From: Betaproteobacteria bacterium RIFCSPLOWO2_12_FULL_68_19
Lineage (GTDB): Bacteria; Pseudomonadota; Gammaproteobacteria; Burkholderiales; SG8-39
DNA: 55,874 nt
Reading direction: 5' to 3'
NCBI GenBank assembly: GCA_001772055.1
Contig: MERP01000102.1
Coordinates: forward strand, 1-55,874
Position 1 is the stretch's first letter; each line of letters starts with the position of its first letter. This document shows, one piece after another, positions 19,989 to 29,445 of this stretch. The notes under the pieces were generated by a model. It saw nothing but the letters and a program-made list of their open reading frames with translations, searched no databases and was not told where the DNA came from. Made by a program: the position numbers and the translations under genes.

Positions 19989-21646
<1,658 letters not shown>

Positions 21647-21745
21647 GCGCCCCCCGCCGGCCTAATTTACCCGATGTGGCGGTCGGGCAACAAGGCAGTT
21701 CCCATCGGGGAAGCCCTGATTGCGCCCCTCCGGGCGGGGGGCGTT

Positions 21746-21825
21746 AAATGGCCCCGGGAGGCATCGGGCACGGCAGCAGCCGCACCCGGGCCTAGGCGAT
21801 GTGCCCCGCCCAAGGGGCCATTTTT
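21746..21825 (+). promoter_or_regulatory. long imperfect stem-loop in the rpfF leader, followed by a T-run and the rpfF SD
   Basis: AAATGGCCCC (21746-21755) is perfectly complementary to GGGGCCATTT (21814-21823). There is an inner GGGCAC/GTGCCC pair. TTTTT follows, then GGGGAGAAA and ATG 21839. Confidence 0.45.
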
Positions 21826-21838
21826 CGGGGAGAAAGCG

Positions 21839-22780
21839 ATGAGCAACCTGCGCGACGCAGTCGGCCTGTGCGTGCCGTACGGCAAGGCCAATTCGCAATA
21901 CGAAACGGAGTTCGAGCCCGCCACGGGCACGGTGTGGGGGTACTTCAACCCTCGCGGCACGGCCTGCTACAGCCTCGGCCTGCTCAAGGACATCCTTGCC
22001 CACGACCAGGCGCTTGCGGCCAACGGCGCTCGCGTGGACGTCGAGGGCGCGATGCACGAGGTGAACTACTACGTCACGGGGTCGCGCGTACCGCGCGTGT
22101 TCAACCTCGGCGGCGACCTCGCGCTGTTCGTGCTCCTGATCAAGGCGCGCGACCGCGACGCCCTGGCGCACTACGCCAGGCTGTGCATCGACAATATGTA
22201 CCCGCGCACGCAGAATTTCTTCAGCCCGACGCTCACCAAGATCGCCCTGGTGCAAGGCGACGCGCTCGGCGGCGGATTCGAGTGCGCGCTCGCCTCCGAC
22301 CTGATCGTCGCGGAAGAGAGCGCCCAGCTCGGATTCCCGGAGATCCTGTTCAACCTGTTCCCCGGCATGGGGGCCTACAGCCTGCTCGCGCGCCGCATCG
22401 GCATGCGCGCCGCCGAAGAGCTGATTCTCTCGGGCCGGATCCTGCCGGCGGCGAAGCTGCACGAGCTGGGCGTGGTGGACATCCTGGCGAAGGACAGCGA
22501 AGGGCAGACGGCGGTGCGCACTTGGATCGCGACCAACGCCAAGCGCCGTAACGGGATGCAAGCGGCGTTCCGCGCGCGCAAGCACGTTCACCCGGTGACG
22601 CGCGAGGAGCTCGACGCGATCACCAACGTCTGGGTGGACGCGGCCTTCAGGCTCCAGGACCGCGACCTCAAGATGATGGGGCGCATCGTGCGCGCGCAGA
22701 TGCGGCGTACCGAGTTCGGCACCGTGACCGACGTCACCGCCGAGGCGCTGGCGGAGGAACGGCTCGCGGCGGCGGTATGA
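21839..22780 (+). CDS. rpfF: DSF synthase (RpfF-type crotonase/enoyl-CoA hydratase family)
   Basis: Strong by-eye similarity to Xanthomonas RpfF across VFNLGGDLALF, ALVQGDALGGGFECALA, GFPEILFNLFPGMGAYS, WVDAAFRL and RIVRAQ. Both catalytic Glu positions (GGGFE, FPE) are present. Confidence 0.85.
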   Translation: MSNLRDAVGLCVPYGKANSQYETEFEPATGTVWGYFNPRGTACYSLGLLKDILAHDQALAANGARVDVEGAMHEVNYYVTGSRVPRVFNLGGDLALFVLLIKARDRDALAHYARLCIDNMYPRTQNFFSPTLTKIALVQGDALGGGFECALASDLIVAEESAQLGFPEILFNLFPGMGAYSLLARRIGMRAAEELILSGRILPAAKLHELGVVDILAKDSEGQTAVRTWIATNAKRRNGMQAAFRARKHVHPVTREELDAITNVWVDAAFRLQDRDLKMMGRIVRAQMRRTEFGTVTDVTAEALAEERLAAAV

Positions 22781-22789
22781 CGCCGGGCT

Positions 22790-23494
22790 TCACCCCCCGA
22801 TGAGGGACGTGAAGCCGCCTTCCCGGAACATCAGGCCGAACTGGTAGAAGTTGACCCTGGTCGAGTTGATGATGGATTCCTGGGCCGCGCGCTCGTCGAC
22901 CTTCTTGATCAGGAGGTTGAGCTTGGCCAGGTGGTCCACGTCCATGGTGGCGTGGGAGGAAAGGAATTTGAAGCCTCCGCCCTCGACGTCGCGCCCGATC
23001 GCCCGGGCGATGGAGTCGGAGACCCGGCCGGCATAGACGGAGGAAACGACCTCGAGCATATAGAGCATCCCCAGCACGGAGCATGGGTGCACCCGTTCGG
23101 CGCCGTGATAGTTGAACGCGATCATGGCCTGCACCGGGGCGCTAGGCGGATTGGACCTCGCGCCGGCGACATCGCCCCCCACAGCCTCGATGTCCTCGAG
23201 CACCCATGTTTCGTGCCCTTTCTCTTCCTCGATGCGCTCGTACAGCTCGTAGCGCACTTCCCGGTAGCGGTCGTCGCAGCGCGCGGCGGCGGCGGCCATG
23301 ATGGGGCAGAAATGCCACACGATGTGATACAGGTCGTGCAGGAACGCCTGGTACTCGGACAGGCTGAGCCCGTTGTGAATCATGGTGTGCATCTTCGGAA
23401 TCTCTTCCAGGCCCCGTCGTGCCGCGTCGGTCATCTCGACCAGAGTGATGAAGAACGAAACCGGCTTGGACTCCTGGATAAAAACGCTGGACAC
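22790..23494 (-). CDS. heme-oxygenase-like fold 'iron-containing redox enzyme' family protein with a diiron-type ligand pattern
   Basis: The product is helical (LSLSEYQAFLHDLYHIVWHF). The ligand pattern is EEKGH ... MLEVV ... SHATMDVDH. The start is uncertain: GTG 23494 follows AAGGGGGG, and ATG 23434 is the alternative. It lies 28 nt downstream of the rpfC stop on the same strand. Confidence 0.7.
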   Translation of the reverse strand: MSSVFIQESKPVSFFITLVEMTDAARRGLEEIPKMHTMIHNGLSLSEYQAFLHDLYHIVWHFCPIMAAAAARCDDRYREVRYELYERIEEEKGHETWVLEDIEAVGGDVAGARSNPPSAPVQAMIAFNYHGAERVHPCSVLGMLYMLEVVSSVYAGRVSDSIARAIGRDVEGGGFKFLSSHATMDVDHLAKLNLLIKKVDERAAQESIINSTRVNFYQFGLMFREGGFTSLIGG

Positions 23495-23522
23495 GACGCC
23501 CCCCTTGTTGGGGAATTGTAGC

Positions 23523-26060
23523 TCAGCTGCTGCGGCGCTCGACCGAGCGCCGCTCGTGCACGTAGCGCTCGAGTTCGCCGCGCGCCGCGGCGAGCGCATC
23601 GCCGAGCGAGCGCAGCAGCGCGGGCGCCTGCAGCCGCAATTCGGCGTCGGACAATCGGCCAAGATTGCCGCACATCGCGGTCAGCTGGTCGGTTCCTATG
23701 CTCGCCGAGGAGCCCTTCATCGCGTGCAGCAGCGAGCGGAACTCGTGGTAGTTGCGCCCGGCGAGCGCCTGCTCAACGCGGGTAAGCAGCGCGCTGCTGT
23801 CGGCGAGGAATACGCCGACCAGCTTCTCGACGAAGGCCGCCGAGGAGCCGAGCTCCTCGAGGTGCCCGAGCGTCTCGGTATTGACCAGCGGCGTGGCGGC
23901 GGCCTGGCGCGGCGCGCGCGCGGCAGGCTGCGGCTCCTGGCGCCGCTCCTCCTCCGGCCTGACTGCGCTCAGCGCCTGCACCTCTTCGAGCAGCCGCAGC
24001 GCTTCGATCGGCTTGGGCAGGAAGGCATCGAAGCCCGCCTCGAGCGCCTCGCGCCTCGTCTCGGGCGTCACGTCGGCCGAGAGCATCGCCACCGGCAGGC
24101 GCTCGCGTCCCCGGCCGATCAGCCGGATCGCCTGCAGCGTCTCCACGCCGCCCATGCCGGGCATGTTGCGGTCGAGCAGCACCACGTCCGGGCGCTCCTG
24201 CTCTAGCGCGTCGAGCGCCTGCTCGCCGTCGCTCGCCAGGATCACGCTGTGCCCGCCGCGCTCCAGGATCTTGCCGATCACCTCGCGGTTGGTCGGATTG
24301 TCGTCGGCGACCAGCACGCGCAACTTGCGCGCTGCGGCGCCGCGGCGCGCATAGTCCTGCAGCCGCACCACGCCTTCGCGCACCTCGTCGCCGGCGGAGA
24401 CCGAGTGCAGCACGTTGAACAGCAGCCGCTTGTCGAAAGGAAGCTCGAGCACCGCGCCGAAGCCTGCCGAGAGCGCCTCGAAGCGCGGCACGGCGGCCTC
24501 GCGCGGCACCGCCAGCACGCTCGGGGGCGCGGGATCGGGCGCGGCGCGCCGGAAGCGCTGGGCGAGCTTCAGGTCGTCGCCGGTCGCGTAGATGAGCGCG
24601 CTGTGGTAGGGCTTGGCGAGGCTGATCTCCGTGACCAGCCGCGCCACGCCTTCCTCGATGGTAGCGACCGCGATCGGCATCGCTCCCCAGCCGGCGAGCG
24701 CCTGCTCGAGCGGCTCGAGCTGCGCCGGCGGGAAGCCGACCAGCAGCACGCGCGCCTCGGCGAGCTCGCCGCTGCCCGCGCCAGCGCGCTCCGGCTGCTT
24801 CTCAAGGTCGACCTCGACCCAGAACGTGCTGCCCAGCCCGACCGCGCTTTCCAGGCCGATCCTGCCGCCCATCAGGCCGACCAGCTGCTTGGCGATGGTG
24901 GTGCCCAGCCCGGTGCCGCCGAAGCGGCGGGTAGTGGACTGGTCGGCCTGGATGAAGCTCTCGAAGATGCGCGCCTGGGCCTCGGGCGCGATGCCGATGC
25001 CGGTGTCGCGGATGGAGAACTTCAGGCGCACGCCGCTATCGGTTTCCACCTGGGCGGAGACGTGCACCGTAACGGTGCCGCGCTCGGTGAACTTGACCGC
25101 GTTGCCGGCCAGGTTGATCAGGATCTGGCGCAGGTAGTGCGGGTCCCCGCGCACCGCCGGCGGCACCTCCGGCATGATGGAGACGACGAATTCGACTCCC
25201 TTTGCCGCCGCCTGCGCGCCGAGGATGCGGCAGGTGCTGTTCACCAGGGCGTGCAGGTCGAAGTCGGCCTTCTCCAGCACCACCTTGCCGGCCTCGATCT
25301 TGGAGAAGTCGAGTACATCCTCGACCAGGCCGAGCATCACGCGCGAGGAGCTGCGCAGGGTCTGCAGCATGTCCGCCTGCTCGCGCGTGAGAGGCGTATC
25401 GCGCAGCAGGTCGGCCATGCCGATGATCGCGTTGAGCGGCGTGCGCATCTCGTGGCTCACCACCGAGATGAAGCGCCGCTTCGCCTGGTTGGCCGCCTCG
25501 GCGCGCGCCAGCGCGTCGAAGAGCTTGGTCACCAGCGAACGCACGTACAGGCTCAGCGCGATGAAGCCGAACAGCAGGCCTGCGCCGAGGCCGACGTTGG
25601 CGCGCCAGAAATCGTTCTGCCACAGGACCAGCGAGAAGCCGGCGACGCTGAACGCGAGCGAGACCAGCAGGTAGCGCTGCCCGAAACGGAAGCCGTTCGC
25701 CAGCGTCACCCAGACGTAGATCAGGAACAGCGGCGCCGCGCGCTCGCCGAGCAGGCCCATCAGCCCGGTAAGCGTGCCGATGTCCAGCGCGGTGGCGAGG
25801 ACGCGCCGCGCCGGCGACTCGCCCGGAGCGGCAAGGATGTGCGTGAAGATCAGCGCCGCGACCGCGAGATAGGCGGCCATCACCACCACCGTCGGCTCAA
25901 TCTCGCCGGCGGTGGCGCCCATCACCAGGTAAACCAGGATCACCGCGCCGACCACCAGCCGCACGATCGCCTGCTCGTGCTCGGTGTCCGGCCGGGTGTG
26001 CAGCCGCTCCCGGACGCGGCCGAGAAGCGAAGTCACTGCGGGGTCGCCGGGTCGCGCCAT
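23523..26060 (-). CDS. rpfC: RpfC-like hybrid sensor histidine kinase (membrane sensor, HisKA, HATPase, degenerate receiver-like insert, REC, HPt)
   Basis: It has N-terminal TM helices after RPDTEHEQAIVRL and the H-box VVSHEMRTPLN. The G-boxes are DTGIGI and GGTGLGT. The REC reads RVLVADDNPTNR...LLDRNMPGMGG...KPI and the HPt reads HAMKGSSASIG. The start is ATG 26060, or GTG 26036 overlapping the rpfG stop. Confidence 0.85.
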   Translation of the reverse strand: MARPGDPAVTSLLGRVRERLHTRPDTEHEQAIVRLVVGAVILVYLVMGATAGEIEPTVVVMAAYLAVAALIFTHILAAPGESPARRVLATALDIGTLTGLMGLLGERAAPLFLIYVWVTLANGFRFGQRYLLVSLAFSVAGFSLVLWQNDFWRANVGLGAGLLFGFIALSLYVRSLVTKLFDALARAEAANQAKRRFISVVSHEMRTPLNAIIGMADLLRDTPLTREQADMLQTLRSSSRVMLGLVEDVLDFSKIEAGKVVLEKADFDLHALVNSTCRILGAQAAAKGVEFVVSIMPEVPPAVRGDPHYLRQILINLAGNAVKFTERGTVTVHVSAQVETDSGVRLKFSIRDTGIGIAPEAQARIFESFIQADQSTTRRFGGTGLGTTIAKQLVGLMGGRIGLESAVGLGSTFWVEVDLEKQPERAGAGSGELAEARVLLVGFPPAQLEPLEQALAGWGAMPIAVATIEEGVARLVTEISLAKPYHSALIYATGDDLKLAQRFRRAAPDPAPPSVLAVPREAAVPRFEALSAGFGAVLELPFDKRLLFNVLHSVSAGDEVREGVVRLQDYARRGAAARKLRVLVADDNPTNREVIGKILERGGHSVILASDGEQALDALEQERPDVVLLDRNMPGMGGVETLQAIRLIGRGRERLPVAMLSADVTPETRREALEAGFDAFLPKPIEALRLLEEVQALSAVRPEEERRQEPQPAARAPRQAAATPLVNTETLGHLEELGSSAAFVEKLVGVFLADSSALLTRVEQALAGRNYHEFRSLLHAMKGSSASIGTDQLTAMCGNLGRLSDAELRLQAPALLRSLGDALAAARGELERYVHERRSVERRSS

Positions 26061-27121
26061 TCGTTCTGGATCTGGATCACTTCGCTCTTCAGGCTGCCGA
26101 AGGCCTCGGCCAGGCGCGGGTCGAAGTGCTTGCCGGCCTGGGAAGCGACGTACTCGAGCGCCTTCTCGCTCGGCCACGCGGCCTTGTAGGGCCGCACCGA
26201 GGTAAGCGCGTCGTAGACGTCGGCGACGGCGACGATGCGGGCGCACAGCGGGATATGGTCGCCGACCAGCCCGTTGGGGTAGCCCGAGCCGTCGTACTTC
26301 TCGTGGTGGCCGAGCGCGATCAGCGCGCCCATGCGCACGTACTTGGAGGCGCTGCCCTTCAGGATCTCGTGGCCGATCACCGGGTGGCGCTGCATTACCT
26401 GCCATTCCCCGGCATCGAGCTTGTCGGCCTTGAGCAGGATCTGGTCCGGGATGCCGATCTTGCCGATGTCGTGCAGCGGCGCGGCGAGCTCGACGGTCTC
26501 GGCCTCGTCGCGCTCGAGCCCGAGCGCGTTGGCGATGAGGCGCGAGTAGCGCGCCATGCGGATCAGGTGGTAGCCGGTCTCCTCGTCGCGGAACTCGCCC
26601 GCGCGCGCGAGCCTGAGCAGGGTTTCCTTCTCGCGCTCCCTCACTTCGCGCGTCGCGTCCTCGACCATGTGCTCGAGCAGGCGCCGGCGGTCCTCGAGGG
26701 CAAGCTGCTGGCGGCGCAGCGTGAGCAGGTTGCGGCAACGCGCCAGGCACTCGCGCGCGTCGACCGGCTTGGTGAGGAAGTCGGTGATGCCGGCATCGAG
26801 CGCGGCGTAGCGCACCTTGCGGTCGTCGTGCACGGTCACCATGACGATCGGCACGTGCTCGTAGCCCGGCAGCGCGCGCAGGCGCTTCACGAACTCGATG
26901 CCGTCCATGTCCGGCATCATGTAGTCGACCAGCACCAGGTCGCTCACGTGGCGCGTCGCCCACACCACCGCGTCGACCGGGCGCGCGAAGCCCTCGACCG
27001 CGACGCGCTCGTCGAGGCTGCGTACCACCTGTTCAAGGATTGCCCGGCCGGTCGACTGGTCGTCGACCACCATGACCGTGTTGCGCGCCGAAGGCAATAC
27101 CCTCACCTGCGCCTTGGCCAT
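26033..27121 (-). CDS. rpfG: RpfG-like response regulator with an HD-GYP domain (c-di-GMP phosphodiesterase type)
   Basis: The REC reads VMVVDDQ...VLVDYMMPDMDG...TKPV. The HD-GYP part has LHDIGKIGIP and HHEKYDGSGYPNGL. Confidence 0.9.
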   Translation of the reverse strand: MAKAQVRVLPSARNTVMVVDDQSTGRAILEQVVRSLDERVAVEGFARPVDAVVWATRHVSDLVLVDYMMPDMDGIEFVKRLRALPGYEHVPIVMVTVHDDRKVRYAALDAGITDFLTKPVDARECLARCRNLLTLRRQQLALEDRRRLLEHMVEDATREVREREKETLLRLARAGEFRDEETGYHLIRMARYSRLIANALGLERDEAETVELAAPLHDIGKIGIPDQILLKADKLDAGEWQVMQRHPVIGHEILKGSASKYVRMGALIALGHHEKYDGSGYPNGLVGDHIPLCARIVAVADVYDALTSVRPYKAAWPSEKALEYVASQAGKHFDPRLAEAFGSLKSEVIQIQNEWRDPATPQ

Positions 27122-27225
27122 GACCCCCCAGGGTTGCGAATTTAGCCGTCAGAGCCTACGCCCCGGCCCGGACGCTGTCCAGCAAAGGGCGCGCGGCTCA
27201 CGCATTTTTTCACGCCTTTGTCGCT

Positions 27226-27310
27226 TTACGTCCGTGGTGCCGGAAGAGAGACTCGAACTCTCATGGTGTTGCCACCGGCGGATTTTGAGTCCGCTGCGTC
27301 TACCGGTTCC
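27226..27310 (-). tRNA. tRNA-Leu (anticodon CAA)
   Basis: The minus-strand sequence GCCGGAATGGCGGAACCGGTAGACGCAGCGGACTCAAAATCCGCCGGTGGCAACACCATGAGAGTTCGAGTCTCTCTTCCGGCACCA is 85 nt. The acceptor stem pairs GCCGGAA with TTCCGGC. The anticodon loop is CTCAAAA. It has a long variable arm, the T-arm GAGAG-TTCGAGT-CTCTC, and an encoded CCA. Confidence 0.95.
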
Positions 27311-27361
27311 GCCATTCCGGCCGGGGTCTCGCCTGGGGAAGGCGAAATTATAATTCGCGCG

Positions 27362-29445
<2,084 letters not shown>

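Follow-up and report, generated by a model that had tools for sequence, protein, structure and literature searches.

The stretch of DNA analysed here, positions 1–55,874 of contig MERP01000102.1 from Betaproteobacteria bacterium RIFCSPLOWO2_12_FULL_68_19 (assembly GCA_001772055.1; 55,874 nucleotides, called the window below), contains a gene set of the rpf type, with genes for an RpfF-family crotonase, an RpfC-like hybrid kinase and an RpfG-like regulator. Placed between the crotonase and kinase genes is a gene for a further protein which, on its sequence, predicted fold and ligand set, is a dimetal oxidase or oxygenase of the heme-oxygenase-like kind (HDO), of the 3His/3carboxylate type, that belongs to an uncharacterised subfamily. 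On balance we think it probable that this subfamily is a dedicated partner of RpfF and carries out an O2-dependent oxidative tailoring of the RpfF-derived fatty-acyl product. Oxidative modification of the signal, of a kind not described so far, would then be likely in bacteria that carry an RpfF-linked HDO.

The window HDO matches the Pfam family PF14518 (Haem_oxygenas_2, 'iron-containing redox enzyme') over residues 49–210 with an E-value of 1.1e-20 and a score of 74.6 bits, compared with a gathering score of 28.9. It has 1,662 homologues in a 90%-cluster database, and the family is under strong purifying selection. The AlphaFold2 model, for which 33 sequences were aligned, shows the all-helical bundle of the seven-helix heme-oxygenase-like type, with a mean predicted local distance difference test (pLDDT) score of 94.6 and a predicted TM-score (pTM) of 0.89. 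In a Foldseek search against the PDB the best matches of this model are 3DDE, CADD from Chlamydia trachomatis (CtCADD) and UndA, with TM-scores of 0.75–0.86, while heme oxygenases, TenA, PqqC and BesC rank below these. The family profile matches 3DDE with an E-value of 8e-32, CADD with 1e-11, UndA with 1e-6 and MboA with 7e-6. A sequence-only reading of the window had already described the protein as all-helical and as resembling the 'iron-containing redox enzyme'/heme-oxygenase-like family, and had proposed a profile search and a structural comparison. Both place the protein in this family, the latter as far as the predicted fold is concerned.

The same reading had picked out by eye an ExxH motif, a lone glutamate and an HxxxDxxH motif as the six-ligand pattern of UndA and CADD. 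All three motifs are present as read, their codons having been verified base by base, and all six positions are aligned by the family profile (Table 1). In the model the ligands are carried by the helices formed by residues 75–91/94–104, 139–165 and 176–197. Glu91 and His94 are invariant in our alignment A1, and the complete set of six is retained in all of 120 close homologues, in 16 of 17 proteins in which the HDO is fused to an RpfF-like domain and in 114 of 115 fusions with an AMP-ligase, the one exception among the latter differing at His181 only. The 3His/3carboxylate class is used here as defined in a 2026 review (PMC13108848). As a member of this class, the window HDO would be expected to bind two metal ions (Fe/Fe or Fe/Mn) and to depend on O2. 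A conserved seventh carboxylate, as in N-oxygenase-type HDOs, was not seen by eye in alignment A1. This does not settle the type of reaction, since N-oxygenases such as HrmI are also found among the 3His/3carboxylate enzymes (PMC13108848).

Several better known assignments were rejected. The match to PF03070, which would indicate TenA or PqqC, scores 19.2 bits and stays below the gathering score of 22. For PqqC, no model is present among the NCBIfam matches at E ≤ 0.1, and the neighbouring genes are rpfC and rpfF rather than pqq genes. Identity with CADD is contradicted by a TIGR04305 score of 19.9 bits against a cut-off of 200 and by the replacement of the sacrificial residues Tyr27 and Lys152 by Met35 and Val158. 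A canonical heme oxygenase is equally disfavoured: there is no PF01126 match at E ≤ 0.1, and these enzymes rank below the HDOs in Foldseek. Nor is the protein an orthologue of UndA, to which it is 15–16% identical in the structural alignment and for which the profile match is weaker than for 3DDE and CADD. UndA-type decarboxylation is therefore only one candidate reaction.

The link to RpfF comes from the genomic context. Relatives of the window HDO were searched for exhaustively among 1.84 billion cluster representatives, and two sets of loci were compared. Clade 1 consists of 80 Burkholderiales genome loci in which the HDO is 62–91% identical to the window protein; almost all are metagenome-assembled genomes (MAGs), mostly labelled uncultured Burkholderiales or Betaproteobacteria. 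Clade 2 consists of 80 loci on unbinned metagenome contigs with an HDO that is 44% identical, found by a metagenome scan with a four-sequence alignment. In clade 2 the HDO gene lies immediately upstream of a same-strand RpfF-like gene in each of the 59 loci with enough downstream sequence, and a convergent hybrid kinase gene then follows the pair in 27 of 32. In a Lacisediminimonas MAG, whose HDO is 43% identical, an rpfG–rpfC–HDO string is convergent with a retained rpfF, and for a relative of 39% identity a hybrid kinase–HDO string is convergent with rpfF in the absence of rpfG.

Among cultured bacteria we identified an RpfF-linked HDO in Methylibium petroleiphilum PM1 alone, where the genes are located on a conjugative megaplasmid and the HDO gene (MPE_RS20535) overlaps the RpfF-like gene (MPE_RS20540) by 4 nt. 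They are part of a three-gene string (locus L170, 6998–9550, corresponding to 209039–211591 of plasmid RPME01, NC_008826.1). The third gene encodes a 280-residue protein with the annotation 'ferritin' that matches the soluble acyl-ACP desaturases (FA_desaturase_2) with 32 bits (gathering score 22.7) and also AurF-type diiron proteins. No sensor kinase gene is found near this string.

The nearest non-orthologous relatives of the HDO in the exhaustive search include fusion proteins. In each of 17 distinct proteins of 575–685 residues, one of them labelled Rhodothalassiaceae, an RpfF-like domain is followed by a linker of low complexity and an HDO domain, the two halves being 44–46% and 42–49% identical to the two window proteins. 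Both fusion loci that were examined adjoin genes for RpfC-like hybrid kinases. Over all types of arrangement the pairwise distances of HDO and RpfF co-vary with r = 0.92, a value reached by none of 2000 permutations, which is compatible with inheritance as a pair. The HDO thus does not occur at random positions in relatives, a point that the sequence-only reading had singled out for checking; in all lineages examined it accompanies rpfF, even as a fused domain. Loci with RpfF-like and RpfC-like kinase genes and without any HDO also exist, for example in Mongoliimonas terrestris. This makes the HDO an accessory and not a core part of the system, as expected for a tailoring step.

In one of the fusion loci (L081, 14678–17352) a PhyH dioxygenase gene and a LuxI/LuxR pair are found about 3 kb from the RpfF–HDO fusion gene, which puts two quorum-sensing systems side by side. 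Directly downstream, the same fusion gene is followed by one for an MMPL transporter.

Clade 1 keeps the order queA / rpfG–rpfC–HDO / rpfF (convergent) / small open reading frame (ORF) / panC. The HDO gene is at most 200 bp from the 3′ end of the convergent rpfF in 67 of 74 loci. It adjoins rpfC in only 44 of 69; other genes lie between the two in the remaining 25, with an opposite-strand gene in 13 loci. The HDO is tied more tightly to the synthase gene rpfF than to the rpfGC sensor operon.

The opposite-strand gene in these 13 relatives (L031 9051–9959 and L066 9020–9937, both on the minus strand, and 11 more) encodes a 305-residue membrane protein with His boxes, which has a Pfam match to FA_hydroxylase (1.6e-29) and a weak similarity to OlsE, an ornithine-lipid hydroxylase. 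Its orientation breaks any co-transcription of rpfC and HDO at these loci. In five relatives (L048 8590–9942 on the plus strand, L044, L063, L079 and L080) a same-strand cytochrome P450 gene is found between rpfC and HDO, the product of which (PF00067, 9e-87; motifs AGHETT and FSAGDRHCIG) is a second oxidase at the locus. Coq4-family proteins are encoded as stand-alone proteins of 247 residues in seven loci (L059 10689–11432, minus strand) and as a 571-residue fusion of an EamA/DMT transporter with Coq4 downstream of rpfF (L006 1992–3707, minus strand). The product might be exported by this fusion with a transporter. In 16–17 relatives (L040 11050–12483, minus strand; L050 13355–15010, plus strand) two further genes separate rpfF from the small ORF, for a flavin adenine dinucleotide-dependent oxidoreductase (PF12831, 1e-79) and for a 551-residue protein that resembles gamma-glutamyltranspeptidases by eye. 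The 2.3 kb contig DASTEB010000360.1 (L001), binned as 'Chloroflexia bacterium', encodes an HDO and an RpfF-like protein that are 91% and 94% identical to those of the window, in the Burkholderiales arrangement, and is probably mis-binned.

In more than 100 clusters a sister HDO clade with 29–36% identity is coupled to acyl-AMP/CoA ligases, either by fusion or by adjacency. Its operon, found in Marinobacter, Vibrio, Pseudoalteromonas and other hosts, comprises genes for a thermostable-hemolysin-family protein (PF12261), an AMP-binding enzyme, the HDO (fused or separate), a short-chain dehydrogenase/reductase (SDR) and a tetratricopeptide-repeat or hypothetical protein, with a methyltransferase gene in some cases (L166 6307–10558; L167 6345–11358; L171 2931–7082, on pLH214-1 of V. 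parahaemolyticus). In Marinobacter and in the closest metagenome example it adjoins two-component genes of the PhoQ/OmpR type. Our literature search found no paper on this thermostable-hemolysin/AMP-ligase/HDO cluster. The RpfF-family partner, the acyl-ligase sister clade, the inserted lipid oxidases (FA_hydroxylase and P450) and the Coq4-like and EamA–Coq4 proteins together point to a fatty-acyl or carboxylic acid as the substrate of the window HDO.

These elements can be combined into a putative reaction sequence. Enzymes of the RpfF family dehydrate a 3-hydroxyacyl thioester and release a cis-2-unsaturated acid, and the RpfF-like crotonase of the window would do the same to yield a cis-2-unsaturated fatty acid. 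The HDO, a soluble protein, would bind two Fe ions (or Fe/Mn) through Glu91, His94, Glu148, His181, Asp185 and His188 and activate O2, and would then oxidise the fatty-acyl product of RpfF or its immediate precursor. Candidate reactions from the known HDO repertoire are a desaturation, a hydroxylation or epoxidation, and an oxidative decarboxylation like that of UndA. The RpfC-like kinase and the RpfG-like HD-GYP regulator would respond to the modified signal. We infer the substrate, from the partnership with RpfF, and the role of the product as the signal.

More speculatively, the signal jointly made by RpfF and the HDO might not be a cis-2-enoic acid any more, but either a decarboxylated volatile (a terminal alkene, an alkyne or a methyl ketone) or an acid that has been oxygenated or desaturated further. 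In that case a new chemical class of quorum-sensing signal, arising through a new HDO reaction, would be sensed by RpfC-type kinases in soil Burkholderiales and in some Alphaproteobacteria. We put this forward tentatively and regard it as rather doubtful.

Several observations weigh against oxidative tailoring by the HDO. The six-ligand motif is common to HDOs that act on amino acids, and the ligands therefore say nothing about the substrate. The nearest solved structure, 3DDE, has no assigned function, and the identity to the fatty-acid enzyme UndA is low, as noted above. No reductase partner is evident within the window. In the AlphaFold2 model of the natural fusion P0281 both domains fold and the linker (residues 316–378) is disordered; the pTM is 0.50 and there is no confident packing of the domains against each other, a result that agrees equally with the presence and the absence of a fixed complex. 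The synteny within clade 1 is in part plain chromosomal collinearity, as the housekeeping genes queA and panC are conserved too. For this reason clade-1 synteny by itself is discounted, and it is the distant clades, the rearrangements and the fusions that carry the argument.

The best surviving alternative is signal turnover, which we nevertheless consider unlikely. The HDO would destroy the signal made by RpfF, for instance by oxidative decarboxylation to an inactive hydrocarbon, and provide negative feedback or a reset by analogy with RpfB of Xanthomonas. Expression coupled to the receptor would agree with the location of the HDO gene behind the sensor and regulator genes, at a gap of 28 nt in the window; the HDO fold is known to support chemistry of the UndA type on medium-chain acids; and the rpfB–rpfF pair of Xanthomonas is a precedent for co-located synthase and turnover genes. 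Yet the HDO is separated from rpfC in 25 of 69 close relatives and comes first in the two-gene string with rpfF in all 59 clade-2 loci. The 17 natural fusions, moreover, tether it covalently to the synthase, and degradation within a 1:1 fusion would be a futile cycle. Because one lineage has the HDO covalently fused to the synthase and another has the two as a two-gene string, biosynthetic tailoring is more likely than destruction of the signal.

A regulatory or sensory partner would explain fusion and tight linkage equally well. The HDO would sense iron, O2 or the redox state, or bind a fatty acid, and control RpfF through protein contact. The diiron cluster of HDOs is labile (PMC13108848), which would suit an iron sensor, and the HDO-like protein DtpC has a protective and not a biosynthetic role. 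However, nearly all functionally validated HDOs are enzymes (PMC13108848), and the full catalytic ligand set is kept across clades with such different partners as RpfF and AMP-ligases. The modelled fusion shows a disordered tether of about 60 residues and no confident domain contact. We regard a purely regulatory role as distinctly improbable.

A similarly slender chance is given to the two proteins being a metabolic pair, in which the thioesterase activity of RpfF would free fatty acids from acyl carrier protein and the HDO would turn these into hydrocarbons or oxidised lipids, for example volatiles or lipids of the membrane or the surface, that the adjacent kinases do not sense. The plasmid cassette of M. 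petroleiphilum, which combines the HDO, the RpfF-like protein and the ferritin-like desaturase-type protein with no sensor kinase nearby, speaks for such a pair, as does the lipid-type operon of the sister clade with its thermostable-hemolysin-family protein, AMP-ligase, HDO and SDR. Outside the PM1 plasmid, however, the HDO–RpfF pair is usually found beside an RpfC-like kinase (clade 1, the 27 of 32 clade-2 loci, both fusion loci, Lacisediminimonas and P0437), and the window RpfF-like protein is closest to proven synthases of DSF, the diffusible signal factor.

It can hardly be entertained that the position in the rpf locus is incidental and the protein is PqqC, a thiaminase or regulator of the TenA type, a p-aminobenzoate synthase like CADD, or a true heme oxygenase. 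In favour are the weak matches to PF03070 and TIGR04305 and the database names, which are 'PQQ biosynthesis protein C' for many homologues at JGI and 'TenA family transcriptional regulator' for one at NCBI. The linkage to rpfF is kept across three gene arrangements, however, and is thus not incidental, and no pqq, thiamine or folate genes are adjacent, the housekeeping gene folK being 3 kb away and syntenic in all relatives. The names 'PqqC' and 'TenA family regulator' are widespread among automated annotations of the homologues and are corrected by the HDO assignment.

The HDO gene itself was described in the sequence-only reading as an ORF of about 234 codons that starts 28 nt beyond the rpfC stop codon on the same strand, and this is confirmed (Table 1), the stop codon of the rpfC-like gene being at 23523–23525. 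An alternative in-frame ATG at 23434 would lose the conserved and confidently modelled helix 1 (SFFITLVE), and homologues align with the window protein from residues 1–12. The GTG at 23494 is therefore the likely start codon. At the other end the convergent RpfF-like gene stops at 22780. The closely spaced convergent ends had been correctly recognised, with the spacing given as 10 nt; by our count 9 nt separate the two stop codons. A hairpin had been placed between the two genes, and here the reading was in error: the left arm of the inverted repeat holds the HDO stop codon and the right arm lies within the last HDO codons. The ΔG of folding is −20.1 and −25.1 kcal/mol, with z-scores of −1.6 and −2.0, and a T run is missing. 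A canonical terminator was rejected, as the repeat overlaps the end of the ORF, has no T tail and has a weak z-score.

A scan of 21300–27400 for promoters and terminators returned matches at chance level (one promoter-like site with 0.5 expected, five terminator-like sites with 2.8 expected) and is uninformative on transcription units. One terminator-like match, at 23489–23501, is a 5 bp stem across the HDO start codon and belongs to this chance-level class. Read-through along rpfG–rpfC–HDO is plausible, given the 28 nt gap, the Shine–Dalgarno-like site within it and the fact that no terminator is convincing, and in the window the HDO is probably co-transcribed with the two upstream genes. To this extent its description as the third gene of the rpfG–rpfC transcript is tenable; it does not extend to the family, because 25 of 69 relatives have intervening genes. 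Co-transcription with rpfC is not the conserved feature of the family, and in many relatives the HDO gene must have its own promoter.

Table 1. Coordinates of the HDO gene, its predicted metal ligands and neighbouring features in the window
Feature	Position	Strand	Remarks
HDO gene	22790..23494	-	234 codons; GTG start at 23494, stop codon 22790-22792
E91-x-x-H94 (EEKGH), ExxH ligand pair	23213..23224	-	Core helix 1; aligns with UndA E101/H104
E148 (MLEVV), candidate bridging carboxylate	23051..23053	-	Core helix 2; aligns with UndA E159 and the CADD Glu in YESQ
H181-x3-D185-x2-H188 (SHATMDVDH), HxxxDxxH motif	22931..22954	-	Core helix 3; aligns with UndA H194/D198/H201 and CADD HEEADVRH
Shine–Dalgarno-like site AAGGGGGG	23499..23506	-	4 nt upstream of the HDO GTG, within the 28 nt gap after rpfC
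Inverted repeat GGCTTCAC-15 nt-GTGAAGCC	22786-22793 / 22809-22816	.	Weak hairpin
RpfF-family crotonase (predicted DSF-type signal synthase)	21839..22780	+	Convergent with the HDO gene
RpfC-like hybrid kinase	23523..26036	-	Hydrophobic N-terminus, then HisKA-HATPase-REC-Hpt (Pfam); directly upstream of HDO
RpfG-like regulator	26033..27121	-	REC (PF00072) and HD-GYP cyclic di-GMP phosphodiesterase domain (PF13487/PF01966); first gene of rpfG-rpfC(-HDO)

The neighbours of the HDO gene form an rpf-type set. The RpfF-like protein matches NF006452 with 347 bits (cut-off 177) and scores 208 bits with the strict RpfF equivalog NF053515, below the cut-off of 550. Its best matches in the PDB are 6DGN and 5FUS (1e-54) and RpfF of Xanthomonas campestris pv. 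campestris (3M6M, 4e-48), with generic enoyl-CoA hydratases at 1e-15, and it keeps the catalytic glutamate pair (GGGFE...FPE). Judged from these matches, it is an RpfF-family enzyme of a divergent subfamily, and a DSF-type (cis-2-unsaturated fatty acid) signal is predicted for the locus. The N-terminal region of the kinase was read by eye from the translation as multiple transmembrane segments, without use of a transmembrane predictor, and the motif HHEKYDGSGYP is visible in the translation of the RpfG-like regulator. The rpfG stop codon and the rpfC GTG start codon overlap as GTGA (26033–26036), which suggests translational coupling of regulator and sensor. A 78-residue ORF at 21410–21646 on the minus strand is divergent from rpfF and is always found between rpfF and panC, with 71–90% identity, in the Burkholderiales loci that reach this flank. 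Neither Pfam nor NCBIfam has a match for it, and the clade-2 loci lack it.

In many Proteobacteria virulence, the formation of biofilms and tolerance to antibiotics are under the control of DSF-family signalling. To our knowledge, no enzyme besides RpfF takes part in making the signal in the rpf clusters described so far, and RpfB, an acyl-CoA ligase, is the only enzyme known to process it. A full-text literature search returned no paper that links rpfF or DSF with heme-oxygenase-like, PF14518, PqqC or TenA proteins, in line with the statement of the sequence-only reading that no rpf locus with such an enzyme is known to have been described. What is new is thus a DSF-type quorum-sensing module with a conserved, predicted oxidative third component. 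A conserved second enzyme that uses O2, in some cases fused to the synthase, would mean that the signal differs in its chemistry or in its processing in a large group of soil and water bacteria, most of them uncultured. Of the more than 10,000 members of the HDO superfamily about a dozen have been validated, and the superfamily is described as largely unexplored (PMC13108848); one of its orphan branches here gains a biological context and a probable substrate class. The natural RpfF–HDO fusions and the gene pair of the cultured M. petroleiphilum PM1 make the question directly testable.

With the canonical rpf clusters (rpfB–rpfF / rpfC–rpfH–rpfG in Xanthomonas, rpfF–rpfR in Burkholderia) the window locus shares an RpfF-family synthase, an RpfC-type kinase with an Hpt domain and an RpfG-type REC–HD-GYP protein. 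It differs from that of Xanthomonas, where rpfB is present, in that no rpfB-like gene is found between panC and queA. The AMP-ligase-linked HDOs belong to the same subfamily as the window HDO, have the same ligands and are likewise coupled to an acyl-handling enzyme, which in their case is an adenylating enzyme instead of a crotonase.

Among proteins of known structure, the closest relative is the structural-genomics protein Sden_3740 of Shewanella denitrificans (3DDE), with TM-scores of 0.79–0.80, conserved six ligands and 19% identity in the Foldseek alignment. The self-sacrificing p-aminobenzoate synthase CtCADD (1RCW, 8VA9) has the same fold (TM 0.79–0.86) and the same 3His/3carboxylate ligands; the window HDO differs from it in lacking both the sacrificial Tyr/Lys pair and a folate-pathway context. 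UndA, the oxidative decarboxylase of medium-chain fatty acids from Pseudomonas (4WWJ, 6P5Q), belongs to another subfamily, the window HDO being closer to 3DDE and CADD. We know of no report of an UndA that is linked or fused to a crotonase or a sensor kinase, and a cis-2-enoic acid lacks the sp3 β-hydrogen that UndA abstracts. The two proteins are nevertheless alike in their heme-oxygenase-like fold (TM 0.75–0.77) and in having the same six ligands in register, and the partnership with RpfF suggests medium-chain fatty acids as a likely substrate class common to both.

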